A stretch of 64,000 bases of DNA from NCBI GenBank assembly GCA_963722605.1, contig CAVRNO010000002.1:1760178-1824177 (forward strand), given 5' to 3'. The notes under the pieces were generated by a model. It saw only the letters and a program-made list of their open reading frames with translations. It ran no database searches and was not told the DNA's origin. Shown here piece after piece: positions 6,532 through 37,304 of this stretch; the first letter of the stretch is position 1, and every line of letters starts with the position of its first letter. Source of the stretch: Candidatus Binataceae bacterium (lineage in GTDB: Bacteria > Desulfobacterota > Binatia > Binatales > Binataceae). The position numbers and the translations under genes are program-made.

Positions 6532-6688
6532 CTATTTGAGTAGCTATTGCAAGATCATGGTTGATATTCGCTCGATCGGATTGGCAACGGATATATAGCC
6601 AACAGGGATACAATATGAGTATTCACTGTGACCTCAGATCTTTCGCCATCATCGTTGCAACGACGGCGAGCCTGTTCGCGGCCGGCGG

Positions 6689-7213: not shown

Positions 7214-7308
7214 GAGACGCAGCATGAGGCGAGCAATCATTCTCGGCTCCCCGCTTGCCGCGATTATAGTGCTGGCATATCTGTGGTCGACGCTTCGGCG
7301 GTTCGTCG

Positions 7309-7689: not shown

Positions 7690-7743
7690 ATCACACGGGC
7701 GGGGCTATTTGCGCCGTCGCGTTTTTCAATCACAATCCCTTCG

Positions 7744-8943: not shown

Positions 8944-10733
8944 AGCTGCTTACCCCGATGCAATGGCGGCTGTTCGGCTACCTGCGCCGATACCTGTTCC
9001 CGTACGTGCTCTTGCTTGGAATCGCGATGGGCGTGCTGTCGGCGGCGACCGGCGGGGTCCCAATTCTCGTGAAGTGGGTAGTCGACCTGGGCACTAGTCT
9101 CGGAACCGCTCATCAGTTCGATGCGCGCAGTGCCTTGAAGCTGCGTGAATATTCGCTGGTGCTCGCGGGATTATTTTTGCTCCGAGCGCTCGGCAATTTT
9201 TCCGACGACTACTTGAGCGCATACATCGCCCAGAAGCTGACGATGGACATCCGGGCGGATCTGAACGAGAGCCTGCAACGCCAATCGCTGAGTTTCTTCA
9301 ATCGCACGCCGACGGGCGTGATGGTCTCGCGGGTAATCAGCGACGTGGGCCTGGTGATGTCGAGCCTGAGCAGCGGCTTGTTTTCGTTCGTCGCCGGCGG
9401 CATGTCGCTGGTCGCGTTGCTGCTGATCGCCTTTAAAATCGATTGGCAGCTCGCGATCATCGCGTTCGTCGGTTTTCCAGTCGTGGTGCTGCCGATCGTC
9501 GGTCTTTCCAAGAGAGTCCGCCGCGAAACCAAGAATCAGCAGAAACAATTGAGCGGTTTGCAGTCGCTGCTGGTTGAAACCTTCCAGGGAAACCGCGTGG
9601 TCAAGGCGTTCGGGATGGAAGATTACGAGCGCGCGCGTTTCAACCGCGAGCTCAAGCGGCTGTTCCGAATCTTCATGCGGGTGGCGCGGATCAAGGCCAT
9701 CACCGGACCGCTGATCGAGGCGATGGGGGCGTTCGCGGTCGTCGCGGTGGTTTGGTGGGCAGTGGGATCGCTGCAGGCGGGCACGCGCACGCTGGGTCAA
9801 TTCGCGGGTTTCTTTGCGGTTATGATTCTCGTGTACCCGCCGTTCAAAAGCGTCAGCAAGACCAACAACACTATCCAGCAGGGGCTGGCCGCGGCCGAGC
9901 GCGTCTTCGAGATGATGGATATGCCGAGCGATGTTCCCGACGATCCCGACGGAATCGAGCTGCGGCCCGGCCCGCACGGCGTTGCGTTCGAGAACGTCAG
10001 TTTCCGATACGGCGACGAATGGGTGCTGCACGATATCACCCTCGAGATCGGCGTTGGCAAGGTCGTAGCGCTGGTCGGGATGAGCGGCGGCGGCAAATCC
10101 ACGATGGCCGATCTGATTCCGCGCTTTTACGACGTGCAGCAAGGACGCGTCACGGTTGACGGCATCGATGTGCGCAAGCTGCGGCTCAAGTCGCTGCGCG
10201 CGGAAATCGGCCTGGTCACCCAGAGCACCTTTCTGTTCGACGACACGATTCGCGCCAATATCGCCTACGGCAGCAGCGACAAGCATCTCGAGCGCGTAAT
10301 CGCGGCAGCCAAGCTCGCCAACGCCCACGACTTCATCATGCGGCTGCCCAACGGTTACGAGACGATGGTGGGCGAGTTGGGCGTGCGCATGTCAGGCGGC
10401 GAGCGCCAGCGAATCGCGATCGCGCGCGCGCTGCTCAAGGACGCGCCGATTCTGATTCTCGACGAAGCAACCTCGTCGCTGGATTCGGCGGCCGAACGCT
10501 CCGTGCAGGAAGCGCTCGAGCACCTGATGGCGAACCGCACCACGCTGGTGATCGCGCATCGGCTGTCCACCGTGCGCCGGGCGGACCGGATCGTCGTGGT
10601 CGTTCACGGCCGGATAGTCGAAGATGGAACGCACGAGGAATTGTTTGCGCGCGGGCAGGAGTACCGAAAGCTCTACGACCTTCAATTCATGTCCCCCGAG
10701 GATTTGGCCGGTAATGGCGGCCTCGTCAACTGA
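8940..10733 (+). CDS. msbA: Lipid A export ABC transporter MsbA-like (fused permease and ATPase)
   Basis: Six-TM N-terminal half. Walker A GMSGGGKST, signature MSGGERQR, Walker B ILILDEATS. The ATG at 8940 overlaps the lpxB stop (ATGA). The longer ORF from 8634 overlaps lpxB and its extension is Arg/Gly-rich noise. Confidence 0.85.
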   Translation: MKLLTPMQWRLFGYLRRYLFPYVLLLGIAMGVLSAATGGVPILVKWVVDLGTSLGTAHQFDARSALKLREYSLVLAGLFLLRALGNFSDDYLSAYIAQKLTMDIRADLNESLQRQSLSFFNRTPTGVMVSRVISDVGLVMSSLSSGLFSFVAGGMSLVALLLIAFKIDWQLAIIAFVGFPVVVLPIVGLSKRVRRETKNQQKQLSGLQSLLVETFQGNRVVKAFGMEDYERARFNRELKRLFRIFMRVARIKAITGPLIEAMGAFAVVAVVWWAVGSLQAGTRTLGQFAGFFAVMILVYPPFKSVSKTNNTIQQGLAAAERVFEMMDMPSDVPDDPDGIELRPGPHGVAFENVSFRYGDEWVLHDITLEIGVGKVVALVGMSGGGKSTMADLIPRFYDVQQGRVTVDGIDVRKLRLKSLRAEIGLVTQSTFLFDDTIRANIAYGSSDKHLERVIAAAKLANAHDFIMRLPNGYETMVGELGVRMSGGERQRIAIARALLKDAPILILDEATSSLDSAAERSVQEALEHLMANRTTLVIAHRLSTVRRADRIVVVVHGRIVEDGTHEELFARGQEYRKLYDLQFMSPEDLAGNGGLVN

Positions 10734-10765
10734 CGCTCGCCGATCGTAAATTCGACTCGTCAAGT

Positions 10766-12055
10766 GTGCGGATCGGGCAGCCTTCGATGTTAACCGCGCT
10801 GTACAACTTGTTGTGGTATCCGGCGCTGCCGTTTGCGCTGCTCGCCGCGCATCCGGCCAGCATGCGCGACTTTCGCGAGCGGATGGGCCAGGGCGATTTT
10901 CCCGATACCGCGGGCGCACCGCGAATCTGGATTCATGCGGCTTCAGTCGGCGAGATCGAAGCGATTCGGCCGGTCGCCAACGGCCTGCTCGATCGCTATC
11001 CGGGCGCGGTCATCGCAATCACCGCGATGACCGCGGCGGGGCGTGAGGCGGCGATGCGCCGAATCCCGCGGGCGGCGGCGTGGATGCTCGCGCCGCTGGA
11101 CAATCGGCGCGCGGTGCGGTCCTTTCTGGAGCGCGTGCAGCCGGGCATCGTGCTGATCGCCGAGACTGAAATCTGGCCGAACTACTTCATCGAATCCGCG
11201 CGGTCGGGCGCGGCGATCGCGGTGGTCAACGGCCGGATGTCGGAGCGATCGTTGCGCCGCTACCTGCATGCGCGCAGTTTGTTTGAAGATGCGCTCGGAC
11301 GGGCTGCCTTGATTCTGACGCAGAGCCGCGAAGACGCGGATCGTTACGCGAAGTTCGATCTCGCGGCAAAAGTGGTGGTCACCGGCAATACCAAAATCGA
11401 AGCGGCGGGTTCGCAGGCGGCTAATGAAGAAACAATTCGCCCCGAGCTGATGGCGTTTGGATCCGGGCGGAAACTTTTTATCGCGGGATCGACCGCCGCC
11501 GGCGAGGACGCCGTGATTGCGGACGCTTATCGTGAACTGCGGATGAACTTTCCCGAGCTCGCACTGACGATCGCGCCGCGCCATCTCGAGCGCACGCCGG
11601 ACATCGAAAAGGCGCTGCATGCGGCCTCGCTCGACTACGTGAAGGCGTCGGAACTCGATTCACCCGGCGCGGCACAAGACGCAAACGTTTTGATCCTCGA
11701 CACCATGGGCGAGCTGCGCAGCTTCTATCGCCGCGGATCGATCGCGTTCGTCGGTGGCAGCCTCGCACCGGGACGCGGCGGGCAAAACCCGGCCGAGCCC
11801 GCGTTGGCCGGGGTCCCGGTCCTGATCGGTCCGTATCACGAGAACCAGCAGCAGCTAGTGTCGTCGCTGGTCAGTTCCGGCGGCGCACGAATCGTCAAGA
11901 ACGCACGCGACGTAATCAGCGAGACTTCGCAATGGCTAGCCGACGATCAGGCGCGACAGCGTGCGGGCCAACGCGCGCTCGCCACAGTGAGCGCGGAATC
12001 GGGCGGCGCACGGCTCGCCTTGAAGCAGCTCGAAGGGCTCATTAATCTCGGCTGA
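10766..12055 (+). CDS. waaA: 3-deoxy-D-manno-octulosonic acid (Kdo) transferase
   Basis: Contains IWIHAASVGEIEAIRPV and has a GT30-like length of 429 aa. Confidence 0.9.
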   Translation: MRIGQPSMLTALYNLLWYPALPFALLAAHPASMRDFRERMGQGDFPDTAGAPRIWIHAASVGEIEAIRPVANGLLDRYPGAVIAITAMTAAGREAAMRRIPRAAAWMLAPLDNRRAVRSFLERVQPGIVLIAETEIWPNYFIESARSGAAIAVVNGRMSERSLRRYLHARSLFEDALGRAALILTQSREDADRYAKFDLAAKVVVTGNTKIEAAGSQAANEETIRPELMAFGSGRKLFIAGSTAAGEDAVIADAYRELRMNFPELALTIAPRHLERTPDIEKALHAASLDYVKASELDSPGAAQDANVLILDTMGELRSFYRRGSIAFVGGSLAPGRGGQNPAEPALAGVPVLIGPYHENQQQLVSSLVSSGGARIVKNARDVISETSQWLADDQARQRAGQRALATVSAESGGARLALKQLEGLINLG

Positions 12056-12058
12056 CCG

Positions 12059-13177
12059 ATGCCCTCCAGCGAGCCGAGTCCGAATCGCCCACGAATCGAG
12101 CGATTGTGGCGGCGGGATCTTCCCGTTCCATTTCTTCCAATTTGGCTTCCGCTCGCGGCGGTGGCGGGATTCTACCGGGTCGGGGTCGCCGCGCGTCATC
12201 TGTACTGGCGGATGATGAAACGGCAGGCGCCGGTGATGACGGTAAGCGTTGGCAATCTGACCGTCGGCGGAAACGGCAAGACGCCATTCACGCTGTTTCT
12301 CGCCAGGCGCTTGCAGAGCCGCGGCTTGCGCGTCGGAATCGTGAGCCGGGGCTACCGGCGCCCGCGATCCAAAGCGCGCGCCGAGCTTGTGGCTGATGGC
12401 GGCGCCTTGAAAATCTCGCCGGAAGACGCAGGCGACGAACCGGCGATGATGGCAAAGTCGTTCACCGGTCCGATTGCGGTTGCGCGCCGGCGCATCGACG
12501 GCATCGAGCTGCTAAACAAACTCGGTCCGCTCGACGCGGTGATCCTGGATGACGGCTTTCAGCACGTGCGCTTGAATCGCGACGTGGATCTGGTGCTGGT
12601 GAGCAACGAGCGCGGCTTCGGCAATGGCTGGATGATCCCGGCGGGACCGATGCGCGAACCCATCCGCGCGGCCCGCCGCGCAGACGCGATCGTGGTGATG
12701 AACTTCGGAACCGGCGCGTCGGCGATTCGACCGTCGCAGATGAAAAAGCTCGCCGGGCGCAAGATACTTCACGCGTCGGTGCGGCCGCGCGCCTTTTTGG
12801 TCACCGAGAACGGGGTGTGGCGCGAAACTCCGCTCGGACTGGGGGGACGACGCGTGCTGGCGGTAAGCGGACTGGCGGATTCAAGCGGGTTCTACGCGAT
12901 GCTGCGTGAACTCGACGTGGACCTGGTCGGCGTTTTCGATTATCCGGACCATCACGCCTACACCAACGCTGACTGGCAGGCTATGGTCAATGCGATGCGC
13001 GACACCGACCTGGTCGTCACCACCGAGAAGGACCTGGTCAAGCTTGAGCGGTTTCCGTTCCCGCGCGATTCGCTATACGCTCTCAGGCTTGAAGTGACGA
13101 TGGATGCGGACGATGCGCGCGCGCTCGACGAGCTGATACTGAGCCGCATCACCGCGCGATCGGCGGCGGATGCATAG
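12059..13177 (+). CDS. lpxK: Tetraacyldisaccharide 4'-kinase LpxK
   Basis: P-loop VGNLTVGGNGKTPF. Follows waaA. Confidence 0.85.
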   Translation: MPSSEPSPNRPRIERLWRRDLPVPFLPIWLPLAAVAGFYRVGVAARHLYWRMMKRQAPVMTVSVGNLTVGGNGKTPFTLFLARRLQSRGLRVGIVSRGYRRPRSKARAELVADGGALKISPEDAGDEPAMMAKSFTGPIAVARRRIDGIELLNKLGPLDAVILDDGFQHVRLNRDVDLVLVSNERGFGNGWMIPAGPMREPIRAARRADAIVVMNFGTGASAIRPSQMKKLAGRKILHASVRPRAFLVTENGVWRETPLGLGGRRVLAVSGLADSSGFYAMLRELDVDLVGVFDYPDHHAYTNADWQAMVNAMRDTDLVVTTEKDLVKLERFPFPRDSLYALRLEVTMDADDARALDELILSRITARSAADA

Positions 13178-13210
13178 CAGACGAAAGCAAATGGCTGGAG
13201 GATTTCCGCG

Positions 13211-13381
13211 ATGGCGCTGAGTCAGGAATTGCTCGACATCCTAGCGTGCCCGAAATGCAAGGGCGACCTGCATCTCAACGACAAGCAGGACGGCCTGGTC
13301 TGCGGCGCTTGCAGACTCGAGTATCCGGTGCGCGACGACATTCCAATCATGCTGATCGAGGAAGCCAAGCCAATCGCGTGA
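13211..13381 (+). CDS. Trm112/YcaR (UPF0434) family small zinc-ribbon protein, 56 aa
   Basis: Hand translation: MALSQELLDILACPKCKGDLHLNDKQDGLVCGACRLEYPVRDDIPIMLIEEAKPIA. It is below the ORF-track length cutoff. The position after lpxK mirrors the lpxK-ycaR linkage known in enterobacteria. Confidence 0.7.
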   Translation: MALSQELLDILACPKCKGDLHLNDKQDGLVCGACRLEYPVRDDIPIMLIEEAKPIA

Positions 13382-13425
13382 AATCTCGGCGGCGCGCGGC
13401 CAGCCTGCCTGAAGCAACGAAAAAA

Positions 13426-14616
13426 ATGAAAACGAGCGAGGCGACGCGCGCCCGCCAGTTCGCATGGCTCGCGATGGGCATCTACATCGCCGGGCTCGGC
13501 ATCTCGGCAACGCTTCGGGCGCAGGGCGACTTCAACGTTTACTATCGCGCGGGCCATCGCGTGCTTCACGGCCTCGCGATCTATCCCCCCGCCGACTCCG
13601 ATCGATTTCTCTACGCGCCGGTTTTTGCCATCTTGTTCGCGCCGCTCGCCGCCCTCCCTCGCCATGTTGCGCAATTTGTTTTCTTCGTGGTCAACGCATT
13701 CTCGTTGATCGAATTGATCCTTGGCGCGGGCGTAATTCTGTTCGGCCGTGAGCGCCGATTGCCCGCCGCGCTGATCGTCGTCCCGGTGTTGCTGTCATTC
13801 CGGTTCATCGGCAACAACATCGAGCACGGCCAGATAAATCTTCCGACCCTGGCGTTGATTGTGTGGGTAATCATTTACGCCGGCGAGTCGCGCGACGGAT
13901 GGGCGGGCCTGATGCTTGCGGCGGCGATACTGATAAAGCCGTTCGCGGTGTTGGCCGCGCTTCATCTTGCGATTCGGCGGCGCTTCGGCGCGCTCGGATG
14001 GGCGGTGGCAGCGGGGATCGCGCTTGCCGTCGTGCCAATCGTGATCTTCGGGCCGCGCGGATGGGTCGATCAAACCGGCGCATACCTGAACGCGGTCGCT
14101 TCGATGACGAATCGATATCGCACGATGCTCACGAACCAGTCTGCCGTGTCGGCGGCCGCGCGCCTGATGAGCCTTCGCATTGGCGCCGGCGCGGAAACCT
14201 CGGCGGTTCCAACAATTGTTGGAATGGGCCTCGAAATAGTTTTGGTCGCGGCAGTGTCGCTCTGGGAAGCGATGAGCCGTGAGCGCGGAAATCTCACGAG
14301 CCACCTCGCGCTCTGCGGCCTGTTCTGCCTGATGCCCTCGATCGCGCCGATTTCGTGGAAAAGTTACTACGCGGCGATGCTCGTGCCGTACATGGCTCTG
14401 ACCGCGGCGCTTTGGACCGATCGAAACCGCGGCGAGCGCGCGCCCATTTCGGTGTGGACGCTGTTCGCGCTTTCCGTGTTGCTCAATCTTGCTCCGGGGA
14501 ATTATTTGAACCGGATCGCCCTCTTCTACTCCGCGCATTTCTTTTCGTCGTTGCTCACGCTCGCCGCCGTGTTCGCATTGTGGCTTCGAAACGGTAACGA
14601 GGCCGCCCAGGCGTGA
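13426..14616 (+). CDS. Polytopic membrane glycosyltransferase, DUF2029/GT87-like
   Basis: About 10 hydrophobic helices and the N-terminal motif QGDFNVYYRAG...FLYAPVFAILFAPLA. The start is taken at MKTSEATRA, because the upstream part of the ORF overlaps the Trm112-like gene. Confidence 0.55.
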   Translation: MKTSEATRARQFAWLAMGIYIAGLGISATLRAQGDFNVYYRAGHRVLHGLAIYPPADSDRFLYAPVFAILFAPLAALPRHVAQFVFFVVNAFSLIELILGAGVILFGRERRLPAALIVVPVLLSFRFIGNNIEHGQINLPTLALIVWVIIYAGESRDGWAGLMLAAAILIKPFAVLAALHLAIRRRFGALGWAVAAGIALAVVPIVIFGPRGWVDQTGAYLNAVASMTNRYRTMLTNQSAVSAAARLMSLRIGAGAETSAVPTIVGMGLEIVLVAAVSLWEAMSRERGNLTSHLALCGLFCLMPSIAPISWKSYYAAMLVPYMALTAALWTDRNRGERAPISVWTLFALSVLLNLAPGNYLNRIALFYSAHFFSSLLTLAAVFALWLRNGNEAAQA

Positions 14617-15356
14617 GAGCGCGCTCGAAAATGAATTGGCGCCGCGATCCGAACTTTTCGGCGTTCAGGATCGGACGCCGGGAGCTCGTGATCCGTCGCG
14701 ATATCGCCGGTCATGCCGCCGAGATCGTGCAAAAGCTCGACGAGCTTAAGTCGGCGGCGGATGCGGGCGCGGGAAATCGCCAGAGCGGATTTCGGCTGAA
14801 GCTGGCAGGCGGGCTCGAGATTTTCGCGCGCCGGGGGCGTCGCGGCGGAATGATCGGATCGATCCTCAGCGACGTTTACGTTGGCATCACGCCGCGCCCG
14901 TTGAATGAACTCGCCGTGGCGGTTGAAGCGATGCGGCGCAGAATTCCCGTGGCGGAACCGATGGGCGCCATGATCGAATGGATCGGCCCCGCTCTCTATC
15001 GCGGATTTTTTCTGACTCGTGCGCTGCGCGGGATGACGCTATGGGAGTTCGTGAAGACGGACGACGATCCGATCGTTCGCGGTCACGTTCTCGCGCAGGC
15101 GCGCGCAGCGATCGAGGCGATGCACGACAAGGGGCTGTTCCATGCCGACCTCAATCTGCACAACATCCTGGTGACGCAAACCGGCGAGAGCTTCAGCGTG
15201 ACCATTATCGACCTCGACAAGGCGCGGCTGTTCGATACGCCGTTGCCGGCAGCGATGCGCCGGGCGAACGCGGCGCGCTTGATACGGTCTGCGCGCAAGC
15301 TCGATCCGTCGGGGCAATATATCGACGCCGCGGCGCTCGCGATTCTGCTGGGGTGA
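14613..15356 (+). CDS. Kdo / lipopolysaccharide kinase family protein (InaA/KdkA-like)
   Basis: Kinase catalytic loop HADLNLHNILV and IIDLDKAR. Length about 245 aa. An ATG at 14631 is an alternative start. Confidence 0.6.
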   Translation: MRARSKMNWRRDPNFSAFRIGRRELVIRRDIAGHAAEIVQKLDELKSAADAGAGNRQSGFRLKLAGGLEIFARRGRRGGMIGSILSDVYVGITPRPLNELAVAVEAMRRRIPVAEPMGAMIEWIGPALYRGFFLTRALRGMTLWEFVKTDDDPIVRGHVLAQARAAIEAMHDKGLFHADLNLHNILVTQTGESFSVTIIDLDKARLFDTPLPAAMRRANAARLIRSARKLDPSGQYIDAAALAILLG

Positions 15357-19595: not shown

Positions 19596-20756
19596 TCATA
19601 GCCACGCGCGATAGAGCGCGAGCGTCCGCGCCGCCATCTTCTCCATCGAATAATTTTCCACGGCGCGGGCGCGCGCCGCCGCGCCCATCTGCGATCTGAG
19701 CGCGGGCGACTCGGCCAGCCGGCCGATCGCCGACACAATACTATCGGGGTCGGCGGGCGGCACGAGGATTCCGGTGCGATCGTGCTCGACCACTTCGCAA
19801 AGGCCGCCGACGCGGCTGGCAATCATGGGGAGCGCGCTCGTCATGGCTTCCAGAGCGGCGATGCCGAGCCCTTCTTGCAGCGACGGCATCGCGAACGCGT
19901 CCGACGCCCACAGCAGTCCGCGAGGGTCGTCGATTCTGCCGAGCAGCTTGACCCTTTCAGCACATCTCAGATGCACGATCAGGTGTTCGAGGTCTGTGCG
20001 AATCGATCCGTGGCCCGCGATGAAGCATCTCAGCTTGATCGAGGGCGCGGCCGAGGCGAGCGCGGCGACGGCTTCGATGAGATAGCGATGGCCCTTGCGC
20101 GGCTCGAGCGCGCCAAGCGCAGAAATCACGAACTCGTCGCCGGATAATCCGAGCGCGGCGCGCGCCTCGAGGCGTTGCGCTGGAGTCGGCGGGTGGAAGC
20201 GGGCGCAATCGACGCCGCTTGGAACGATGTGAGTGCGCCGGCGATCGACGCCCGCGGCGGCGAGCGAATCGGCAACGGCGCCGGAGATCGCGACCACGCC
20301 ATCGACCGCGCGATTGTACAGGTACGGCGCGAAAACGCGGTTGGGCCTGTAGTCCATCCGGCGCGTAACGACCAGCGCGCGGGCGAAACCGCGCGCAAAC
20401 GGCGCCATCGAATGCGCACGCGAGGTATGGAAATGAACGACGTCGTAACGTTCACGTTTGAGGATCGCGCGCAGGCGTATGCCGGCCGCGAGGTCGATAG
20501 CATTGCGGATGCGCAGCGGATGGCATCTTATGCCCGCGGCGGTGGCCCGCTCCCAGAGCCGTCCCGCGGGATCGCAAATCAGCTCCGCGCGATGGCCCGC
20601 GGCGGCCAGGGCGATCGTCAAGCCCAGCACCTGGGTCTGGCCGCCGGCGAAGCCGAGTTCGGGATCGACGCCGGCGATGCTCAACGCCGGGGCGTCAACG
20701 GTGTCGCTAGTGGGATGCACCTGGATGGGGTCGTCAGGTTGAGCAGTCGGCGTCAT
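19596..20756 (-). CDS. Glycosyltransferase family 4 (GT-B fold)
   Basis: C-terminal E-x7-E region PSLQEGLGIAALEAMTSALPMIASRVGGLCEVV. 386 aa. Confidence 0.8.
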   Translation of the reverse strand: MTPTAQPDDPIQVHPTSDTVDAPALSIAGVDPELGFAGGQTQVLGLTIALAAAGHRAELICDPAGRLWERATAAGIRCHPLRIRNAIDLAAGIRLRAILKRERYDVVHFHTSRAHSMAPFARGFARALVVTRRMDYRPNRVFAPYLYNRAVDGVVAISGAVADSLAAAGVDRRRTHIVPSGVDCARFHPPTPAQRLEARAALGLSGDEFVISALGALEPRKGHRYLIEAVAALASAAPSIKLRCFIAGHGSIRTDLEHLIVHLRCAERVKLLGRIDDPRGLLWASDAFAMPSLQEGLGIAALEAMTSALPMIASRVGGLCEVVEHDRTGILVPPADPDSIVSAIGRLAESPALRSQMGAAARARAVENYSMEKMAARTLALYRAWL

Positions 20757-20844
20757 CTTGGCCCGGATTTCCGTTCTCCAAGTTAACCGTCAATTTGAAA
20801 AAATGCGAACGACACCGAATTGAATGCGGAACCCACCGGGGGTT

Positions 20845-20894
20845 GCAGGGGTGACCCCTGCACGCAGTGTTAAGGCCGCCCGCCGTTGGCGGGC
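20845..20894. repeat. 50-nt double-hairpin repeat, copy 1
   Basis: Sequence gcaggggtgacccctgcacGcagtgttaaggccgcccgccgttggcgggc matches 26551-26600 at 49 of 50 positions. It contains the stems GCAGGGG/CCCCTGC and GCCCGCC/GGCGGGC. Confidence 0.85.
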
Positions 20895-20990
20895 TTCCGA
20901 TGGCACTGTGGCCAGTATTTAGAGGCTGCGCGCTCCGTTGTCGCGCGCGGGCGCTGCCGCGGCATCTCGATGACAGCGCGGGCGGCCTTT

Positions 20991-23579
20991 CTATTTCTTC
21001 GGCGCGACTCCGGTACAACCCAGCTTCACGGTCTGCGGCGCGGAAAGCGCGTTGTCGTTAATCGTCAACTTCCCCGTATATCTAATCTTGGCCGGCGGTG
21101 TGCACGTGACCTGGACTTTGCAACTCTGCCCCGGGGCAAGCGTGCCGGTGCATTCGCTCCCTGGCACTAGCTGGAAGGTCGAAGGCGATGCGGATTCCAG
21201 TTTCATGATCACCGGCAGCGCCTTTTTCCCTTTGCCGGCATTCTTGATCGTTACCGTCGCAGGTTTGCTGATCGTATTCTCCGTGACCTTTTTGAACCTC
21301 ACAATCTGGGGAGAGATCGTGAGCTTCTCCTTCACCGGCGTGGGGGTCGCAGTCGGCGTCGCGGTTGAGGTCGCAGTAGCCGTAGCAGTCGTCGTGGCAG
21401 TCGGAGTTGCGGTCGCCGTCTCAGTGGGCGTCGATGTCGAAGTTGCGGTTGCAGCGGCTGTGTTGGTTGGCGTCGCAGTTGCCGTCGCCGTCTCAGTGGG
21501 CGTCGATGTTGAAGTCGGCGTTGACGTCGACGTCGCAGTAGCCGTCGAACTTTCTGTGGCGGTCGCCGTGGCCGTTTGAGCCGATGTTGCGGTAGCCGTT
21601 GACGTTGGGGTTGCGGTCGAGGAGCCCGTGGCGGTCGCAGTCGCTGTCGCGGTCGCGGTCGCTGTGTCTGTGGCTGTCGCTGTTGGCGTGGACGATGGTG
21701 TGTTGGTTGCCGTAGGCGTCGGCGATGCGGTTAACTGCCCGAATGCCACCTCAAACGCAATCGGATACCCGTTGCACGCAAGTCCGCCTGTGTGATCGTC
21801 GTAGGTCCACGCATACTGATGCGGGCACGCATTGGAGAATATCTCGTAATACGGCGTGTCCCCCGCATTCGTGCCGTCGCCCGCGGCCCACAGCGCCGCC
21901 GCCTCCCACTCCGGGTTAAGTGGCGATCCGGTACCCTCGAAAAAGCCGCTGATGGTGTCGTACGAGCCCAGACCGACGATCGGCGCGGGGAGGGTGGTTG
22001 CGTTGGAACCCAAGGGAAGGCATGCGACCCCGGTGTTGACGCCCGTCGCGGCGACGCAGGTATAAACCGGACTAGATGAATATCCCCCGCAATGTTTTCC
22101 TTCGTCCGAAGTCGAGGCACAATCGTTCGGCGGCTGTACCGTCGGCGTTCCTCCGCCGTTGGCTGTCGCGCAGATTCCGACCCAAGACGGCAAACCGGCG
22201 ATTCCGGTCACGGTGGGGCCAACCAGGCATTCCTCGCCCGGCGCGCAATCGATATCGCCCCAGCAAGTCGGCGTTCCCTGGTTGCCGGAGAACATCGTCA
22301 CGCCAACGTAGCTGCTGCTCACGGCTCCACTGTCGTTCGCCGCGTCGTACATGTCTTCATACCAGGAGCCGTCCGCGCTGAAGCCGATGCTGTGGACGCT
22401 GCCACTGGGAATCGGGGTCCCGCATTCAAGACTTGTCACGCCCGGCGCACTGACCGGCAATGGATAACTGGCGCCGCATAGCTTGCCTGGGCCGTTGCAG
22501 CCGATTACGCAGGTAAAGCCCCCGCTGCACGACGAAGGATCAGCACCCGTCGGGCAAGCTTCGCATTCGCCTGTCGCACATGCTCCGCCACCGCACGTGC
22601 CGGTGCCGGTCGGCGGTTCGATTACCTGCAGCAAGCTCGGACACACAGCGTTGAGGTCGGTGTTGCAGGCGGTCGAGGCACAGTCAGGACCGCCACCGGT
22701 GCCGGAGTTCGTCACTTTAACGGCGATCGGGTTGTTGTATCCCGCCAAATTGGTAACGTCGTACGTCGCAGCGCCGGCGCCGCCGTCAGCCGCGGAGTTA
22801 TCGGTTATTTCGAATTGCGAGGCCGGAGTTTCCGGACCGAAATTTGCCGGGAGCGGAGTTGAGATAGGAGTCGGCGCAACGCTGGCGCCAGGAGCAGGCG
22901 AGGGCAGGATCGTGTTCTGCCATGAGCCCTGGCACTGCCAGAGTCCGCTGCCGCAATCCCCTGTCCTGCACACCCCGCTTGCGAAACCGCAAAACGAACC
23001 GGCCGCGTAGTACGAAGCACTGCTGCCCGCGGCGGCAACGCAAACCGAGTTCGGCAGCGAGCTGCATGCCCCGTTCGTACCGGTACCGCTGCTGCAATCG
23101 ATCACACATTTGCCGCCGTAGCAGATGTGATTGTTCAACGTCGGATTGCCAGCCTTGCAGGTATTACCCGTCGTGCAGCAATCGCTTTGCGACGTACAAT
23201 CAACGAAATCGTTGTCCGGATCCGCGCCGAAGGTGCCGTTGAAGTCGCATTCGGTGCGCGCCCAGAATGTCCCTGACGTCCAGTCACCCGGCACGCAGAG
23301 AGAGAGCGAACTGCCGGCGTCGAGCTGCCAGTTGTTTTCCGGCGGCGACAGAATCGAACCGGCGTTAACGCTCTCGCCGATCCAGATCGGAAATGAATTC
23401 TGGTTGCGAAGCGTCACGCTCGTCGTGGTGCAGGTTGGCGCCGCGAGCGGCATCGCCCGTGTATTCTGCGCCGTCGCTGGACCGTTAAAGGAAATTACCG
23501 CGCAGATCAGAATTGCAACCAGCGCGGCGAATCCTGTTAGCTTGTACTTCCCGCCGATGTCTCGCATCTGCCCCCCCAA
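20991..23579 (-). CDS. Secreted Cys-rich expanded thaumatin-like protein with Thr/Ala/Pro linker and C-terminal beta-sandwich-like module
   Basis: N-terminal signal/TM segment. Thaumatin-type blocks appear in order: VTLRNQNSFPIWIG, WTSGTFWARTECDF, CRTGDCGSGLWQC (22932-22988), ASQFEIT...YDVTNLAGYNNPIAV, CNTDLNAVCPSLL and YEIFSNACPHQYAWTYDDHTGGLAC...IAFEVAF. A 130-aa T/A/P/S linker is at 21336-21725, and the terminal 114-aa module is at 20994-21335. Confidence 0.6.
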   Translation of the reverse strand: MGGQMRDIGGKYKLTGFAALVAILICAVISFNGPATAQNTRAMPLAAPTCTTTSVTLRNQNSFPIWIGESVNAGSILSPPENNWQLDAGSSLSLCVPGDWTSGTFWARTECDFNGTFGADPDNDFVDCTSQSDCCTTGNTCKAGNPTLNNHICYGGKCVIDCSSGTGTNGACSSLPNSVCVAAAGSSASYYAAGSFCGFASGVCRTGDCGSGLWQCQGSWQNTILPSPAPGASVAPTPISTPLPANFGPETPASQFEITDNSAADGGAGAATYDVTNLAGYNNPIAVKVTNSGTGGGPDCASTACNTDLNAVCPSLLQVIEPPTGTGTCGGGACATGECEACPTGADPSSCSGGFTCVIGCNGPGKLCGASYPLPVSAPGVTSLECGTPIPSGSVHSIGFSADGSWYEDMYDAANDSGAVSSSYVGVTMFSGNQGTPTCWGDIDCAPGEECLVGPTVTGIAGLPSWVGICATANGGGTPTVQPPNDCASTSDEGKHCGGYSSSPVYTCVAATGVNTGVACLPLGSNATTLPAPIVGLGSYDTISGFFEGTGSPLNPEWEAAALWAAGDGTNAGDTPYYEIFSNACPHQYAWTYDDHTGGLACNGYPIAFEVAFGQLTASPTPTATNTPSSTPTATATDTATATATATATATGSSTATPTSTATATSAQTATATATESSTATATSTSTPTSTSTPTETATATATPTNTAAATATSTSTPTETATATPTATTTATATATSTATPTATPTPVKEKLTISPQIVRFKKVTENTISKPATVTIKNAGKGKKALPVIMKLESASPSTFQLVPGSECTGTLAPGQSCKVQVTCTPPAKIRYTGKLTINDNALSAPQTVKLGCTGVAPKK

Positions 23580-23779
23580 GTTCGTTCAGCAGCCAGAAAT
23601 TCCGCTCTCGCTGCGCAAGACCCGGCTTGACATCACTAATGGTAGGAAAATACTACACACGATTATCAGGCGAAGCAATGGGCTCGGCTAATCCGTAGCG
23701 CTGATGATCACACTCGTAGTGTGCAAACACATTTGCTCGGGCTTGAAACCCGCGTAGCTGTTAGAGATTTCAGGAAGAG

Positions 23780-23878
23780 GACGCCGGCGATGCTCAGCGC
23801 CGGGGCGTCAATGGTGTCGCTAGAGGGAACCGGAAAAGCCGCGAAGAAGAAATAGACAGGGCAAAAGCACCTGCACCT
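23780..23878. repeat. Chimeric relic: copy of a GT4 5'-coding segment joined to a copy of the NHL-gene 3' end
   Basis: 23780-23828 matches 20668-20716 at 46 of 49 positions. 23825-23878 matches 26523-26570 (gggaaccggaaaagccgcgaagaa identical, then a degenerate stop and hairpin). The junction falls at the shared GGGA. Confidence 0.75.
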
Positions 23879-24060
23879 GAGTCAAGGAGAATCGCGGAGC
23901 CGGAGTCGCTGCGCTTCGGTCGGGTTTGCTCGGCTCAGACACTCTGGAGACACTGGTTACGATTCGTTGGGCTGTTCCTGCCCGCCATTTGTGTCTCGGG
24001 CGGCAACCTGATAACTCGATATCGATGAATGTCCTCAACGTCGCCGTTCTCCGAGGCTCG

Positions 24061-26550
24061 ATGAAACACTCTTGGGGGAAAGCCCGGATCGGCGTGATTG
24101 CAATCCTCGGCGCGGCCGCGCTGGCGACGGCGGGCCTCCATCGTACTTCAGACCGCGCCTATAGCGCGGATACGATGCCGACGCTCTTTGCTACGGACGA
24201 TTGTTCCGGCGCCGTGACGGCTTATCCCGCCGCAAGCAACGGCGACGTATCGCCGCTGGCCCCGGCGCCTACCGGCCTCGGCCAGCCGAGTTTTGTGGCC
24301 ATTGACGCGAGTGGAAAAATTTACGCCACCAACGCCTGCAACAACACGGTCACCATTTACGCCAGGGGGAGCAATGGCAACACCGCCCCCATCGCCATTA
24401 TCGGCGGGAGCAATACCGGCCTGAGCAACCCACAAGGCATCGCGCTGGATTCCAGCCGTAAAATCTATGTCGCGATCAGTGGCAACACTGTCTCCGGCGG
24501 CTCCATCGCCCCCAGCGTGCTTGTCTATCCGCCGCTGGGAAGCAGCACCGGGCTGCTCAACGAGGCCCCTACCGCCACCATCAGCGGGAGCAACACCGCC
24601 TTGAACAACCCATACGGCATCGCGGCGGATTCCAACGGCAACATCTATGTGGCGGACTCCTCCGCCGGCAGCGTGTTTGCCTATCCGCCGCTGGGAAGCA
24701 GTACCGGGCTGCTCAACGAGGCCCCCACCGCCACCATCAGCGGGAGCAACACCGGCTTGATCAACCCCTACGGCATCGCAGCAGATTCCAGCGCCAGGAT
24801 CTATGTGGCTGACTACTCCGCGAGCAGCGTGTATGTCTATCCGGCACTGGGGAGCAGCGCCGGGCTGCTCAACGAGTCCCCCACCGCCACCATCAGCGGG
24901 AGCGACACCGGCTTGGTCAGCCCATACGGCATCGCGCTGGATCCCAGCGGCAAAATCTACGTGACGGACAACGGCGCCACGAGCGTGTTTGTCTATGAGC
25001 CGCTGGCCAGCCTCCTCAGCGATCCCAATTCTCCAGACGTGACGCCAATCGCCACCATCAGCGGGAGCGACACCGGCTTGATCAACCCGTACGGCATCGC
25101 GCTGGATCCGAGCCGCAATATCTATGTGGTGGACACCTCGAGCGTGCTTGTCTATGAGCCGCTGGCCAGCCTCCTCAGCGATCCCAATTCTCCAGACGTG
25201 ACGCCAATCGTCACCATCAGCACGACCAACACCACCGGCCTGAGCTTCCCACAAGGCATCGCGCTGGATTCCAGCGGCAAAATCTATGTGGCGGATGACG
25301 GTGACAGATTTTGCGATGGTACCGAGAGCGTGTATGTGTATCCCGCCGGGAGCAATGGCAACGTCGCCCCAACCGCCACCATCAGCGGCGCCCATACCGG
25401 CCTTTGCGACCCAATCGGCATTGCGCTGGATTTCAGCGGCAACATCTATGTGGCGGACGACGGCAACCCCAACGCATTCCCATACATTTTCCCCAAGGTG
25501 CTTGTCTATCCGCCGTTGGGAAGCAGCACCGGGCCGCTCAACGAGGCCCCCACCGCCACCATCAGCGGGAGCAACACCGGCTTGGAAACCCCCTACGGCA
25601 TCGCGGCGGATTCCAGCGGTAAGATCTATGTGGCGGACTACGGCGCCACGAGCGTGTTTGCCTATCCGCCACTGGGAAGCAGCACCGGGCTGCTCAACGA
25701 GGCCCCCACCGCCACCATCAGCGGGAGCAACACCGGCTTGGAAACCCCCTACGGCATCGCGGCGGATTCTAGCGGCAATATCTATGTGGCGGATGAAGGT
25801 GACCAAGCTTGCGATGGTACCGAGAGCGTGTATGTCTATCCGCCGTTGGGAAGCACCACCGGGACGGTCAACGAGGTCCCCAGCGTAACCATCAACGGGA
25901 GCAATACTGGCCTGTGCTTCCCAGTCGGAATCGCCGTGGATTCCAGCGGTAACATCTATGTGGCGGATTACGGCACCACGAGCGTGTTTGTCTATCCGGC
26001 GCCGGGAATCAGCAGAGGGCTGTTCGACGAGTACCCCATCACCATTATAAGCGGTCCACTCACAGAACTGAGTAACCCTCAGTTCATCGGCATCCAGCCG
26101 GCAGCAGGGCCGACACCGACCGCGACCAAGACCGCAACGCCGACCGCGACCAAGACCGCAACACCGACTGCGACCGCGACGGCGACGCCAACTGCGACAC
26201 CGACGCCAATCTCGGAGAAGCTGACGTTCAGACCCGCTTCGCTGTCATTCGGAAAAACGGTGACAGTCGGAAAAACCAGCAAGCCCAAGACGGTCACGAT
26301 CAAGAACGCGGGCAGCAAAAAAACAGGCCTGGCGGTGAATATCGAGAGCGAGAGCGTGTTGCCGGCGACGTTCGCGGTCACATCGCAATGCAAACAAACG
26401 CTCGCGCCCGGCAAAAGTTGCAAGGTATCTGTCACCTTCACCCCGGCGGATACGGCGGCGCAGAGTGGAAACCTGAAGATTGTTGACAACGTGCTCGGCG
26501 AGCCACAGTCGGTGGGGCTATTGGGAACCGGAAAAGCCGCGAAGAAATAA
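24061..26550 (+). CDS. Secreted multi-blade NHL-repeat beta-propeller protein with Thr/Pro linker and C-terminal beta-sandwich-like module
   Basis: Signal peptide MKHSWGKARIGVIAILGAAALATAG. About 14 repeats of the type NPxGIAxDSSGxIYVAD..xxSVxVY. The linker is at 26110-26208 and the terminal module at 26209-26547. ATG 24025 and the ORF-track start at 23926 are alternative starts. Confidence 0.7.
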   Translation: MKHSWGKARIGVIAILGAAALATAGLHRTSDRAYSADTMPTLFATDDCSGAVTAYPAASNGDVSPLAPAPTGLGQPSFVAIDASGKIYATNACNNTVTIYARGSNGNTAPIAIIGGSNTGLSNPQGIALDSSRKIYVAISGNTVSGGSIAPSVLVYPPLGSSTGLLNEAPTATISGSNTALNNPYGIAADSNGNIYVADSSAGSVFAYPPLGSSTGLLNEAPTATISGSNTGLINPYGIAADSSARIYVADYSASSVYVYPALGSSAGLLNESPTATISGSDTGLVSPYGIALDPSGKIYVTDNGATSVFVYEPLASLLSDPNSPDVTPIATISGSDTGLINPYGIALDPSRNIYVVDTSSVLVYEPLASLLSDPNSPDVTPIVTISTTNTTGLSFPQGIALDSSGKIYVADDGDRFCDGTESVYVYPAGSNGNVAPTATISGAHTGLCDPIGIALDFSGNIYVADDGNPNAFPYIFPKVLVYPPLGSSTGPLNEAPTATISGSNTGLETPYGIAADSSGKIYVADYGATSVFAYPPLGSSTGLLNEAPTATISGSNTGLETPYGIAADSSGNIYVADEGDQACDGTESVYVYPPLGSTTGTVNEVPSVTINGSNTGLCFPVGIAVDSSGNIYVADYGTTSVFVYPAPGISRGLFDEYPITIISGPLTELSNPQFIGIQPAAGPTPTATKTATPTATKTATPTATATATPTATPTPISEKLTFRPASLSFGKTVTVGKTSKPKTVTIKNAGSKKTGLAVNIESESVLPATFAVTSQCKQTLAPGKSCKVSVTFTPADTAAQSGNLKIVDNVLGEPQSVGLLGTGKAAKK

Positions 26551-26676: not shown

Positions 26677-27369
26677 TCAGTCGAAGAATCTGTAATAGAG
26701 GATTGCGCAGACCGCGCTCATCGCGTCGCGAATGCCGATCTTCTTGCCCTCTTCGTAGGTCCGTCCCGAATACGACACCGGGACCTCGTAGATTCGCCAT
26801 CGCGCGCGCGCGGCTTTGGCGGTGATCTCGGGCTCGAAAGTGAAGCGATTCGCGCTGAGCTTGAGCGTCATCAATTTCTCACGCACGAAAGCCTTCATCC
26901 CGGTCTCCATGTCGGTCAGATTGAGGTCGCTGACCATGTTGGAGAACAGGGTCACTGCGCGATTGGCCACGTAGTGCCAGAAGAACATGACGCGATGCGG
27001 ACCGGAGAGAAAGCGCGAGCCGTAAACCATGTCGGCGCGGCCGTCGAGCAGCGGGATAATCATCGCGGCGTAGTCCCTGGGGTCGTATTCGAGGTCGGCG
27101 TCCTGCACGAAGACGTAAGGATTTTTCGCGGCGGCGAAGCCGAGCCGGAGCGCGGCGCCTTTGCCGCGATTGACGCTATGAAAGAAGCATTGAACGCGCG
27201 GATGGCTGAGCTCGCGCAGAATTTTGGCGGTGCCGTCGGTCGAGGCGTCATCGACGACGATAGCCTCGGAATCGAAGCCGCAATCCAGCACGCGCTCGAT
27301 TACGCGGCCGATGGTGGCGGCTTCGTTGTACACGGGAATCACCACGGAAATTTTGGTCTGCCCGTCCAT
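26677..27369 (-). CDS. Glycosyltransferase family 2 (polyprenol-phosphate sugar transferase-like)
   Basis: Contains KISVVIPVYNEAATI and VVDDASTDGT. The Met at MDGQTKIS overlaps the stop of the upstream kinase gene. Confidence 0.8.
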   Translation of the reverse strand: MDGQTKISVVIPVYNEAATIGRVIERVLDCGFDSEAIVVDDASTDGTAKILRELSHPRVQCFFHSVNRGKGAALRLGFAAAKNPYVFVQDADLEYDPRDYAAMIIPLLDGRADMVYGSRFLSGPHRVMFFWHYVANRAVTLFSNMVSDLNLTDMETGMKAFVREKLMTLKLSANRFTFEPEITAKAARARWRIYEVPVSYSGRTYEEGKKIGIRDAMSAVCAILYYRFFD

Positions 27370-28253
27370 CAGGTTTTGCTCGCCTCCCGAGGCTGCCGCA
27401 CGGGCGCCGATGCGTGGGTGGCGGCGGCTGCGGCTTTGCGTTCCCGTCCCATTCTGGCCGCGAGCATCGCGGCAACGCGGCGGCGACCCGCCCGCCGGCG
27501 CCGGACGGAAAACGCAGCGGCGTATCCGCACCATACGCGCATCCGATCCGTATTGGTGACGCCGCCGAGATCGAGATGCCCGAGCTGAACGAGATTGCGC
27601 ATCCGCGGCCGCTCGAAGCGGCTCAGAATCGTGCGGCGGGTGCGTTCATGATCGATGAAAACGAATTGCGGCGGCTCGACTCCGGTGACGAAGATGTTGA
27701 ACGGGGTCATGTCGCCGTGGATGTATCCGGCGCGATGCAATCGGGCGAGCTCGGCGCCGAGCGCGCGCAACACGGCGCGCCGGGACTCGAGCCGCGCACG
27801 CCTCAAAAAAAGCGCAAGATTAGACCCCTCGACGCGCGCGGTTACTATGATCTCGCGCCCGCCGCCGCGTTCGGCGCCGAGCAGCAGAATTTCCGGCACT
27901 CCGAAGGCATCAGCGCGCAGACTCTCCGATATTGAGGCGACGTGCGCGGCACGGCTGCGCTTGAATATCCGCCTGATTCGATTCAGGCCGCGGATCGGGT
28001 CGAGCAGCTTGAGATAGGCGTCAGGACCTCCAACATGATCGAAATGCTCGAACCATGTCTCGGCATGACGCGAGCGGCGCACCCGAATCGCCAAGGCGCC
28101 GTCGATCGCGGCGAATGCGGAATCGACCAGCGCCTGCCGGAGCCGCGGTGAAAATCGCGCGGCGGGGCCCGGAATGAACAGCGTCCATCCCGCGCGCGTC
28201 AACGGCGGTCCGTCAAAGCCCGGCATCTGCCAGGTGATCCTCTGCCAGGTCAT
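27369..28253 (-). CDS. Lipopolysaccharide kinase (Kdo/WaaP) family protein
   Basis: Contains IHGDMTPFNIFV and FIDHERTRR kinase motifs. The start is chosen at MTWQRITW, which forms an ATGA overlap with the upstream gene's stop. Confidence 0.6.
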   Translation of the reverse strand: MTWQRITWQMPGFDGPPLTRAGWTLFIPGPAARFSPRLRQALVDSAFAAIDGALAIRVRRSRHAETWFEHFDHVGGPDAYLKLLDPIRGLNRIRRIFKRSRAAHVASISESLRADAFGVPEILLLGAERGGGREIIVTARVEGSNLALFLRRARLESRRAVLRALGAELARLHRAGYIHGDMTPFNIFVTGVEPPQFVFIDHERTRRTILSRFERPRMRNLVQLGHLDLGGVTNTDRMRVWCGYAAAFSVRRRRAGRRRVAAMLAARMGRERKAAAAATHASAPVRQPREASKT

Positions 28254-29273
28254 CCGGCCGCTCCACGCATCGCGAGCGCGCTCTTCAAGCCGGCCGCGAC
28301 TTCTTCGGGGGATATTCGCCGCATGCATTCGCGCCCGACAGGGCATTGACGAAGATAGCAGGGATGACACGGGATTGCGCCGCTGATCGCGAGCTCGGCA
28401 AAACCCCACGGGGCGGAGCGCTCGGCGGCGGTAGCGCCCCACAGCGACACTACCGGGCATCCCGTCGCGGCCGCGATATGCATCGGGCCGGAGTCGGGTC
28501 CGAAGGCGACGGCGCATTGGGGAAAGATCGCGATCAGATCGCGGATCGAGGTGCGTCCGGCCAGATTGAGCGCGGGGACGCCGCCCAGGTGGCGCATGAC
28601 TTCGGCGGCGAGTTTCGTTTCACCGGGACCGCCGAGCAACACCGGAAACAGTTTCGGGCGGCCTTCGCCGGGGCTCGCCGCCATCCGGATTACCGCGGCG
28701 GTCGATTCAGGAAAGTAGATGCGGCTTGGCCACGACGAGCCAAGGATCACAGCCAGGATCGGACGCGGCGCATCGACGCAGCATCGCGCGATGCGCGAGC
28801 GCGCTCCTCGTCCGTCGCGGCGAGTCCGAATTCGATCGGCGATGGCGCGATGCCGAGCGCGTCGCCGAACGCCTGGTATTGAAGGAGCTTGAGGCGCATG
28901 TTCGGCTGCGGCGCGATCCGACGATTGGAAAAGAGATAGTTGAACTCCTTGGTGTTGGGCTGGGCGAAACCAAAACGGTCCTTGGCGCCCGAGACTCGCG
29001 AGGTGACACCGCTTTTAAGATGACGCTGAAGGTCTATCGCCAGGTCGAAACGGCCCTGGCGAATTCGACGCAGGAACGAAATGAAGGTCCACGGCGCCGG
29101 GTGCGATCGTACACGATCACCTCGTCGAGCCATCGATGGTGCTCGAGCACTCCGCTGGACTTGGGTTCGACGGCCCACGCGATGTGCGCGCCGGGCCACG
29201 CGTTGCGAATGCGCCCCAGCAAGGGCAGCGCGCGAACCACGTCGCCGATCGCGCCAAGCAGCACGATCAGCAC
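28250..29273 (-). pseudogene. GT9 heptosyltransferase-like gene split over three reading frames
   Basis: The N-terminal piece (29273-29034) carries LIVLLGAIGDVVRALPLL. The middle piece (29199-28747) carries RFDLAIDLQRHLKSG. The C-terminal piece (28750-28250) carries ILGSSWPSRIYFPE...GPDSGPMHIAAATGCPVVSLWG. The span is 1024 nt (3n+1), consistent with two 1-nt losses. Confidence 0.7.
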
Positions 29274-36216: not shown

Positions 36217-36219
36217 GTA

Positions 36220-37134: not shown

Positions 37135-37304
37135 TACTACCGGGCGAGGTAAATCCCCCATTACCGTTCTAATCTAACAGGGCGATGCCCACATCCCGCG
37201 GCGGTGGGGATTCTCTTCCACGCGGGAAGCCCGAAACCCGCGTGAGGTTTCGGGAAATTCCGGTGCGCCCCCCCTGCCCCCGTCTGGAGCAGCACCTTCG
37301 CACG

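Follow-up and report, generated by a model that had tools for sequence, protein, structure and literature searches.

A 64,000-nt stretch of DNA (we refer to the whole stretch as the window) from a soil bacterium of the uncultured Candidatus Binataceae/Binatia lineage carries, at positions 20991 to 23579, a gene whose product is almost certainly a true thaumatin-like protein (TLP). The literature treats TLPs as proteins of ~16-26 kDa that belong to plants, fungi and animals. New in the Binatia protein are two internal modules, which nearly triple the usual thaumatin domain size, together with a domain II of predicted orphan fold, a very high disulfide content and a conserved layout of head, stalk and tail. 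Unusual above all is the larger module, an insertion of ~220 amino acids (aa) in domain II with a predicted fold for which no counterpart was found among solved structures.

Both sequence profiles and predicted structure place the protein in the TLP family. The mature head spans 578 aa (aa 39-616) and contains 38 Cys, with a beta-sandwich core that is broken twice. The Pfam Thaumatin profile (PF00314; gathering cut-off, 27.4 bits) matches the whole protein in three collinear stretches at 64.4 bits (E 1.6e-17) and the head alone at 74.9 bits, and all 42 family members exceed the cut-off. Searching PDB sequences with phmmer returned cherry Pru av 2 (2AHN) at E 4.9e-8 and also apple Mal d 2, while a profile built from the family matched Pru av 2 (2AHN) and Mal d 2 (3ZS3) at ~E 2e-19 (best 1.9e-19) in three collinear blocks. 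An AlphaFold2 (AF2) model of the mature head, made from a 42-sequence alignment, has a mean predicted local distance difference test score (pLDDT) of 73 and a predicted template modeling score (pTM) of 0.74. Foldseek comparison of this model to the PDB gave 29 significant matches, all of them thaumatin-like, with probabilities of 0.99-1.00, E values from 2e-7 to 3.5e-3 and target-normalized TM scores of ~0.45-0.50. A sequence-only reading of the gene had proposed a thaumatin relative and named a PF00314 search and a fold prediction as checks. Both came out in its favor, with a significant profile match and a predicted head fold that resembles thaumatin-like structures and not an unrelated fold.

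The same reading described the thaumatin blocks as standing in canonical order, and every motif that it listed is in place: WARTEC at aa 106-111, CPSLL at aa 313-317, and the C-terminal block as CPHQYAWTYDD at aa 585-595, with C602 downstream. The signature-like segment ASGVCRTGDCGSGLWQC lies at aa 200-216 (22932-22982) and is a near match to PROSITE PS00316, G-x-[GF]-x-C-x-T-[GA]-D-C-x(1,2)-[GQ]-x(2,3)-C. The strict pattern fails only at its first Gly, as had been claimed, where the protein has Ala, and relaxing that position gives a single match; the upper coordinate reported earlier, 22988, was 6 nt too high. None of the 47 family members tested carries the strict signature, and 26/47 match once position 1 is relaxed; the family as a whole departs from the strict signature. 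Recurrence of the same layout, with Cys invariant, in 42 aligned homologues, alongside the E value of the PF00314 match, is far beyond chance.

Two insertions in the thaumatin head

The sequence-only reading counted ~95 aa inserted between WARTEC and the signature (insertion 1, ins1) and ~270 aa between CPSLL and the C-terminal block, a region that holds insertion 2 (ins2). Both distances hold up. C111 and C204 are separated by 92 residues, compared to 9 between thaumatin C56 and C66, and C313 and C585 are 271 residues apart, compared to 43 for thaumatin C134 and C177. Cys and Gly are also as dense in the inserted segments as had been noted, with 11 Cys and 11 Gly in 87 aa for ins1 and 17 Cys and 44 Gly in 252 aa for ins2. 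Judging from the alignments, ins1 is an outgrowth of domain III contained within the C56-C66 disulfide loop. We read ins2 as an outgrowth of domain II that follows the equivalent of C164, because in canonical TLPs this residue leads straight to a 'PTxYSxxF' motif, the very point at which ins2 occurs.

In the head model, pLDDT is 58-75 across ins1 and 80-95 across ins2. The enlarged domain II (aa 313-590) reaches a pLDDT of 89.9 and a pTM of 0.86 when modeled alone, and because of this confident prediction in isolation we regard it as a putatively autonomous, compact alpha/beta module. Foldseek comparison of domain II alone to the PDB found no fold match (best E=5). At E<=10, no Pfam family matches either insertion or domain II taken as one piece, and ins2 has no match below E 0.88 among PDB sequences. 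Having a confident prediction and no solved analogue, domain II is a good target for structure determination. We considered internal duplication as the origin of the insertions and rejected it, as hhalign gave a probability of at most 1.1% for ins1 against ins2, for the halves of ins2, and for the insertions against the core blocks. A hevein/CBM18-like reading of the CC-x5-C motif in ins1 was also discarded, as ins1 matches no Pfam family at E<=10 and the CC pair is not a conserved feature of the family.

Conservation extends into both modules. Nearly every Cys of the insertions is invariant in the 42 aligned homologues, as are many Gly, Pro, Trp, Asp and Asn residues, for example in NQGTPTCWGDIDC and PLNPEW, and 54 positions of ins2 are conserved at 90% or above, with 14 conserved positions in ins1. 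Relative to the closest locus, L002, the ratio of nonsynonymous to synonymous substitution rates (dN/dS) is 0.28 overall, 0.36 in ins1 and 0.21 in ins2. Pairwise dN/dS is 0.1-0.5 in every module; it is lower against more distant loci, but dS is saturated there. Such values point to purifying selection across the family, insertions included. Synonymous divergence itself is uneven along the gene: between 21732-23465 and L002 634-2382, dS reaches 0.65 across ins2, against ~0.20-0.29 for the remaining modules, which may reflect a mosaic or recombinant history.

Canonical Cys, and the acidic-cleft residues that we return to below, were mapped using HMMER alignments together with thaumatin and osmotin numbering; E84, D97 and D102 fell at mutually consistent positions, which served as a check. 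Alignment placed 14/16 canonical thaumatin Cys positions (Table 1), with the pairing itself presumed; the equivalents of thaumatin C9 and C204 are absent. Small and fungal TLPs also have fewer Cys (PMC13148976). The N-core carries two more, C50 and C95. An even number, the head's 38 Cys would be compatible with 19 disulfides, and heads with 34, 36 or 38 Cys were found in 49/51 proteins counted. A bacterial protein with ~19 disulfides is relevant to the biology of oxidative folding.

The listed open reading frame (ORF) starts with TTG (23579), and an in-frame ATG occurs at codon 5 (23567), preceded by GGGGGGG. The ATG is probably the true start, because of this upstream G-run and because the annotated start of P0001, a 93% identical homologue, coincides with it. 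The N-terminus has the features of a Sec-type signal peptide with putative cleavage between PATA and QN, and contains no lipobox as read from the sequence; comparable signal-peptide-like N-termini occur in all family members. Assignment of the N-core rests on a PF00314 stretch (59-140), on alignment to 2ahn residues 2-58 and on strands in the AF2 model. The mid-core, which has invariant columns, aligns to 2ahn residues 64-171 and 3zs3 residues 66-180, with a Pro-rich, low-confidence loop at ~aa 217-252. The C-core aligns to 2ahn residues 183-219, and its Y, D and D are invariant.

Table 1. Parts of the TLP gene, canonical Cys equivalents and the divergent neighbor (positions are those of the window).
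Feature	Residues	Positions	Strand	Description
TLP gene, whole coding sequence	862 aa	20991..23579	(-)	Read from the TTG start
N-terminal signal peptide, putative Sec-type	aa 1-38	23466..23579	(-)	Basic n-region, hydrophobic FAALVAILICAVISF, then PATA followed by QN
Thaumatin N-core	aa 39-110	23250..23465	(-)	Domain I beta-strands; ends in FWARTEC
Insertion 1 (ins1)	aa 112-203	22971..23246	(-)	10 Cys; inside C111/C204 loop; enlarges domain III
Thaumatin mid-core	aa 204-351	22527..22970	(-)	Signature-like CRTGDCGSGLWQC, FEIT (E257), YDV (D274), CPSLL, canonical part of domain II
Insertion 2 (ins2)	aa 352-573	21861..22526	(-)	12 Cys; mixed alpha/beta; makes domain II ~six-fold larger
Thaumatin C-core	aa 574-616	21732..21860	(-)	TPYYEIFSNACPHQYAWTYDD...C602...FEVAFGQL
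Thr/Ala/Pro/Ser-rich low-complexity linker	aa 617-748	21336..21731	(-)	132 aa: 61 T, 34 A, 16 S, 13 P
C-terminal choice-of-anchor D, ASH-type Ig-like domain	aa 749-862 + stop	20991..21335	(-)	Charge +12; ends ...TGVAPKK
Cys equivalents, ins1 flank and signature	C111, C204, C209, C216			Thaumatin C56, C66, C71, C77
Cys equivalents, mid-core	C300, C305, C313			Thaumatin C121, C126, C134
Cys equivalents, domain II	C329, C334, C339, C342, C351			Five remaining domain II Cys of thaumatin
Cys equivalents, C-core	C585, C602			Thaumatin C177, C193
Secreted NHL-repeat beta-propeller neighbor	874 aa	23926..26550	(+)	Nine NHL stretches; divergently transcribed

A Binatia family and its origin

The protein is no one-off oddity; its family is rare, lineage-restricted and conserved. 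Among 5.8 billion proteins searched, 47 clusters matched at 36-93% identity, nearly all with end-to-end coverage, and phmmer, run exhaustively over 1.84 billion cluster representatives, gave 148 matches at E<=1e-3, 34 of them at E<=1e-30. GTDB contigs, taken at one genome per species, yielded 47 loci in ~45 species genomes. Almost all of these are Candidatus Binataceae, Binatus or Binatia metagenome-assembled genomes, the last including Microflora Danica bins labeled 'uncultured delta proteobacterium', and a few loci lie in bins labeled Terriglobales, Acidiferrales, Acidobacteriota or Rhizomicrobium. Near-identical DNA is present in soil, peat, wetland and freshwater-sediment metagenomes.

Using hidden Markov models (HMMs) of the individual segments, we separated three architectures. 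Class A, the window's type, combines the core with ins1 and ins2 and comprises ~55 clusters. Class B has ins2, but its ins1 site spans ~10 aa as in canonical TLPs (P0075, P0077, P0079, P0086 and P0092), and class C is the canonical TLP. No ins2 without a thaumatin core was seen. One Binatia locus, L007, encodes tandem thaumatin-like genes, the first of class A (5755-8469) and the second with ins2 and an ins1 that is divergent or absent (8480-10804). Loci L041-L048 hold divergent Binatia TLPs in which the mid-core and C-core blocks are recognizable, with 230 to ~410 residues between them and no match to the ins2 HMM (examples are L046 4681-6864, L047 2142-3968 and L048 4351-6216). Domain II seems either to have been expanded more than once or, in these loci, to have diverged past recognition.

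One possible history, which we offer tentatively, is an ancient horizontal transfer of a eukaryotic (plant or fungal) TLP into an ancestor within the Binatia or Acidobacteriota, with stepwise growth in which ins2 came before ins1. In the exhaustive search, all 12 of the nearest named canonical-length proteins (12/12) came from plants or fungi, and scores with the family profile are 72 bits for plant TLPs, 45 for a fungal TLP and only 27 for the actinobacterial 7P22. The higher plant scores may, however, merely reflect slower evolution of the long-type plant TLPs, and any transfer must be old given the native GC content of the gene and the spread of the family across ~45 species genomes. The proposed order of growth is supported by the class B relatives, which have ins2 yet keep a canonical 10-aa ins1 site.

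The sequence-only reading held that an expanded bacterial version with a surface-type tail is unusual, since the fold is mainly eukaryotic. As regards bacterial origin in itself, this argument goes too far: the structure of a bacterial TLP has been solved (7P22), Legionella genomes are reported to contain thaumatin motifs (PMC4256840), and the label 'thaumatin family protein' is already attached by NCBI and JGI to members of this very family. The TLP reviews consulted describe only eukaryotic forms of ~200 aa (PMC3048497, PMC13148976), and a literature search for thaumatin with Binatia, Binatota or Binataceae found nothing relevant in the library covered. The family would surprise a TLP specialist, though it is already machine-annotated as thaumatin-like. 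Its significance is that the thaumatin scaffold tolerates two large internal disulfide-rich elaborations, and that these arose and diversified in the Binatia, a soil lineage that is uncultured and found worldwide.

Stalk, tail and genomic setting

Fusion to a surface-type tail, another feature put forward from the sequence, is confirmed: a Thr/Ala/Pro linker leads into a domain (aa 748-844) that matches NCBIfam choice-of-anchor D (NF012200) at 47.2 bits, against a cut-off of 45. The tail also has weak Pfam matches to the Ig-like families ASH, HYDIN_VesB and Cep192_D4. Choice-of-anchor D is found in 27/42 family members (E<=1e-3), and linkers of 55-200 aa in most. The head has a net charge of -38 (family mean -30, range -44 to -12), and the basic tail compares to a family mean of +6; this pattern of acidic head and basic tail is family-wide, with the tail mostly basic. 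Matches of the protein to antifreeze proteins (6xnr, 4dt5; E 0.3-0.4) and to AaBglC were set aside because they fall on the low-complexity T/A linker.

Among TLP homologues, the window's tail type occurs only in P0001, whose head is 93% identical. P0002 and P0003, with heads 78% identical, have a different choice-of-anchor D tail whose similarity went undetected by phmmer, and other members end in unrelated C-termini, such as the aromatic-rich ones of P0012, P0021 and P0022. Since tails differ among similar heads, they appear to have been exchanged at the linker, the DNA of which consists of imperfect tandem repeats. Searching the 5.8-billion-protein collection with the tail alone gave 12 candidates, mostly short fragments. 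A homologous tail lies next door, in the NHL-repeat neighbor. This protein has a T/P-rich linker of the same kind, and its tail (26209-26544) is 50% identical to the TLP tail over 113 aa, both ending ...TG.A.KK. These similarities suggest a C-terminal display module that is shared within this genome and independent of its cargo. The NHL gene contains internal tandem DNA repeats of ~156 bp. Two long ORFs, 21052-21579 (+) and 24148-25806 (-), run opposite the T/A/P linker and the NHL repeats, respectively, and have V/A/G-rich translations; they look like shadow ORFs of repetitive GC-rich codons and not genes.

The genes beside the TLP gene in the window are absent from the other 47 loci, and a subgroup of ~10 loci shares an unrelated housekeeping context. 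With its neighbors not conserved, the TLP gene behaves as a stand-alone unit. We looked for a conserved operon or synteny as a clue to function and found none across loci. Within the window are genes for outer-membrane and lipopolysaccharide (LPS) biogenesis at 37-2208, 8634-15356 and 27369-28517, with a GT4 gene directly downstream of the TLP gene. The proteins encoded include BamA (POTRA and Omp85), an MsbA-like ABC exporter, the Kdo transferase WaaA, a GT87 and two Kdo/WaaP-family kinases; RelA/SpoT, Gmk, YicC and NuoD are encoded as well. BamA, WaaA and the LPS kinases mark the organism as diderm, and the window is ordinary chromosomal DNA of such a bacterium. The TLP gene has a GC content of 0.61-0.64, like its surroundings, and a promoter and terminator scan of 20600-24100 found nothing exceeding shuffled expectation. 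Elsewhere in the window, a gene for a GmrSD-type (type IV) restriction endonuclease (43760-45802, (+)) lies in the region of lowest GC (0.544 at 44001-46000, compared to ~0.63 in the rest of the window), which may be a small acquired defense island. A second GC dip, to 0.565, occurs at 36001-38000.

Proposed function and comparison with known systems

By analogy with other TLPs, the head most likely binds a polysaccharide such as fungal beta-glucan; the full mechanism built around this idea is a tentative proposal, to which we give something short of even credence. The protein would be exported by Sec, folded oxidatively in the periplasm into ~19 disulfides, and displayed outside the cell on the extended Thr/Ala/Pro stalk, which may be glycosylated; the basic Ig-like tail would keep it at the envelope or close by. 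A polysaccharide, most probably beta-1,3-glucan of fungal walls, would then bind in the groove that separates the beta-sandwich from the enlarged domain II, with the invariant E257, D274 and D594/D595 at the groove floor and with the enlarged domains II and III rebuilding the cleft walls into a longer or deeper groove. Weak glycan cleavage would also be possible. In soil, this could serve to antagonize fungi or to scavenge their walls.

We infer extracellular display from the signal-peptide-like N-termini, the choice-of-anchor D tails, the family-wide pattern of acidic head and basic tail, and the diderm host. As for the ligand, beta-glucan is documented to bind the TLP cleft (PMC13148976), and in GH64 glucanases and acidic fungal SUN domains a thaumatin-like lobe and a second lobe together form a beta-1,3-glucan groove (PMC13251364). 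Beta-1,3-glucan is the best candidate because it is a known ligand of the TLP cleft and also of GH64 and SUN proteins, and because the habitat is rich in fungi. If the head does bind or cleave fungal glucan, it would represent an unrecognized bacterial-fungal interaction in soils and peat, and a structurally new glycan-recognition module. A bolder version, in our view rather doubtful, is that ins2, with its six extra disulfides, is a new protein fold that together with ins1 turns a shallow cleft into a deep canyon with new specificity or true catalysis. Were this so, the Binatia proteins would form a third functional branch of the GH64-TLP superfamily, as a bacterial, surface-displayed antifungal lectin or glucanase.

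The acidic cleft bears directly on this proposal. We take its residues, termed REDDD, to be R44, E84, D97, D102 and D185 in osmotin numbering. Whether the cleft is kept, a question raised by the sequence-only reading, has a divided answer. The equivalents of E84 (E257, in FEIT), D97 (D274, in YDV) and D185 (D595, with D594) are invariant in 42/42 members. The equivalents of R44 and D102 are not kept, and they head a set of observations that weigh against binding of glucan at the cell surface. At the R44 position (T104) the 42 members have I, T, V, S or R, and at the D102 position (A279) they have A, S or G, never Asp; with two of the five REDDD residues lost, cleft chemistry is unlike that of the antifungal PR-5 proteins. 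The Arg of WARTEC, R108, is invariant and corresponds to osmotin R48, not R44. Furthermore, there is no recognized sorting signal after the tail, so retention at the surface is conjecture, and among conserved neighbors at the other loci compared there is no carbohydrate-active enzyme, glucan-uptake or other informative gene. Membership in GH64 was also rejected: there is no GH64 Pfam match at E<=1, 3gd0 reached E 0.67 with a probability of 0.09 in the fold comparison, and domain II alone matches nothing.

Of the rival functions, the one given most weight, though still unlikely, is a role in the envelope or biofilm of the bacterium itself, as an adhesin or matrix protein. Such a protein would bind extracellular polymeric substances (EPS), LPS O-antigen or a plant or soil polymer (cellulose or hemicellulose) and would serve attachment, not antagonism. 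A stalk and Ig-like tail are typical of surface adhesins, the same tail on the adjoining NHL propeller suggests a shared surface-display system, and the altered REDDD set points to a ligand different from the one that PR-5 proteins bind. LPS and glycosyltransferase genes (GT4 directly downstream, GT87, Kdo kinases, WaaA) also surround the gene, but this envelope-gene neighborhood is found in no other locus. A head charge of -38 makes binding of anionic EPS or LPS less natural, and the documented ligands of the superfamily are only beta-glucans, plus proteins in the case of inhibitors.

An improbable alternative is that the head inhibits an enzyme, as TLXI and zeamatin do, with the insertions serving as a protein-protein interface. 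The significant fold matches include TLXI (3g7m) and zeamatin (1du5), inhibitors often have disulfide-rich, protease-resistant scaffolds (38 Cys are present here), and the canonical acidic cleft is partly degenerate. For an inhibitor, however, three invariant acidic cleft residues would be needless and a 130-aa stalk and tail would have no obvious use; TLXI is without domain II, and no partner gene is linked. We give similarly little weight to an osmotin-type toxin, released from the cell to permeabilize fungal membranes and to kill through membrane or receptor and not through glucan. TLPs with strong antifungal activity tend to be basic, or else combine an acidic cleft with a basic surface. 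The Binatia head is very acidic as a whole (family mean -30), and a tethering tail argues against free diffusion, even though the protein is secreted, its habitats are soils, and osmotin and zeamatin do permeabilize fungal membranes (PMC13148976). Finally, a mis-called ORF, pseudogene or chimeric assembly, as might be suspected from repetitive linker DNA and opposite-strand shadow ORFs that could break assemblies, is effectively refuted by full-length collinear architecture in 40+ independent assemblies, invariant Cys, dN/dS well below 1 and confident AF2 models.

Among known systems, the Binatia protein is close to the long-type plant PR-5 proteins (Pru av 2, 2AHN; Mal d 2, 3ZS3; osmotin; PR-5d), with which it shares family membership by profile and the same beta-sandwich. 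Both are secreted, and both have the collinear motifs FWARTxC, CxTGDCG, F/AEx, YDVS, CPxxL and CPxxYxxxYDD and the equivalents of E84, D97 and D185; of the 16 canonical Cys positions, 14 can be recognized in the Binatia protein. The Binatia head is far larger, at 578 aa compared to ~200-220, with 38 Cys compared to 16 and with two inserted modules. It is without the C9-C204 disulfide, the R44 and D102 equivalents and the strict PROSITE signature, and it adds a linker, an Ig-like tail and a bacterial host. A bacterial thaumatin fold is likewise found in the Amycolatopsis rifamycinica TLP (PDB 7P22) and in the 'thaumatin' motif proteins of Legionella. Canonical bacterial TLPs are single domains of canonical size (~220 aa in 7P22), without insertions, stalk or tail, and in the same profile search 7P22 is farther from the Binatia family (27 bits) than are plant TLPs (72 bits).

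Two other systems resemble the Binatia protein in concept. The fungal SUN domain (Sun4/Sim1, PMC13251364) pairs a thaumatin-like lobe with a Cys-rich lobe to form a polar canyon for beta-1,3-glucan, and is very acidic and located in the cell wall or extracellularly. Its second lobe is an N-terminal sushi-like fusion and not an internal insertion, the SUN domain is fungal-specific and without REDDD, and we detected no sequence similarity between it and the Binatia protein. The laminaripentaose-producing beta-1,3-glucanases of GH64 (3GD0) share the idea of a thaumatin-like beta-sandwich joined to a large alpha/beta lobe, with a wide acidic groove, and they too are bacterial and extracellular.

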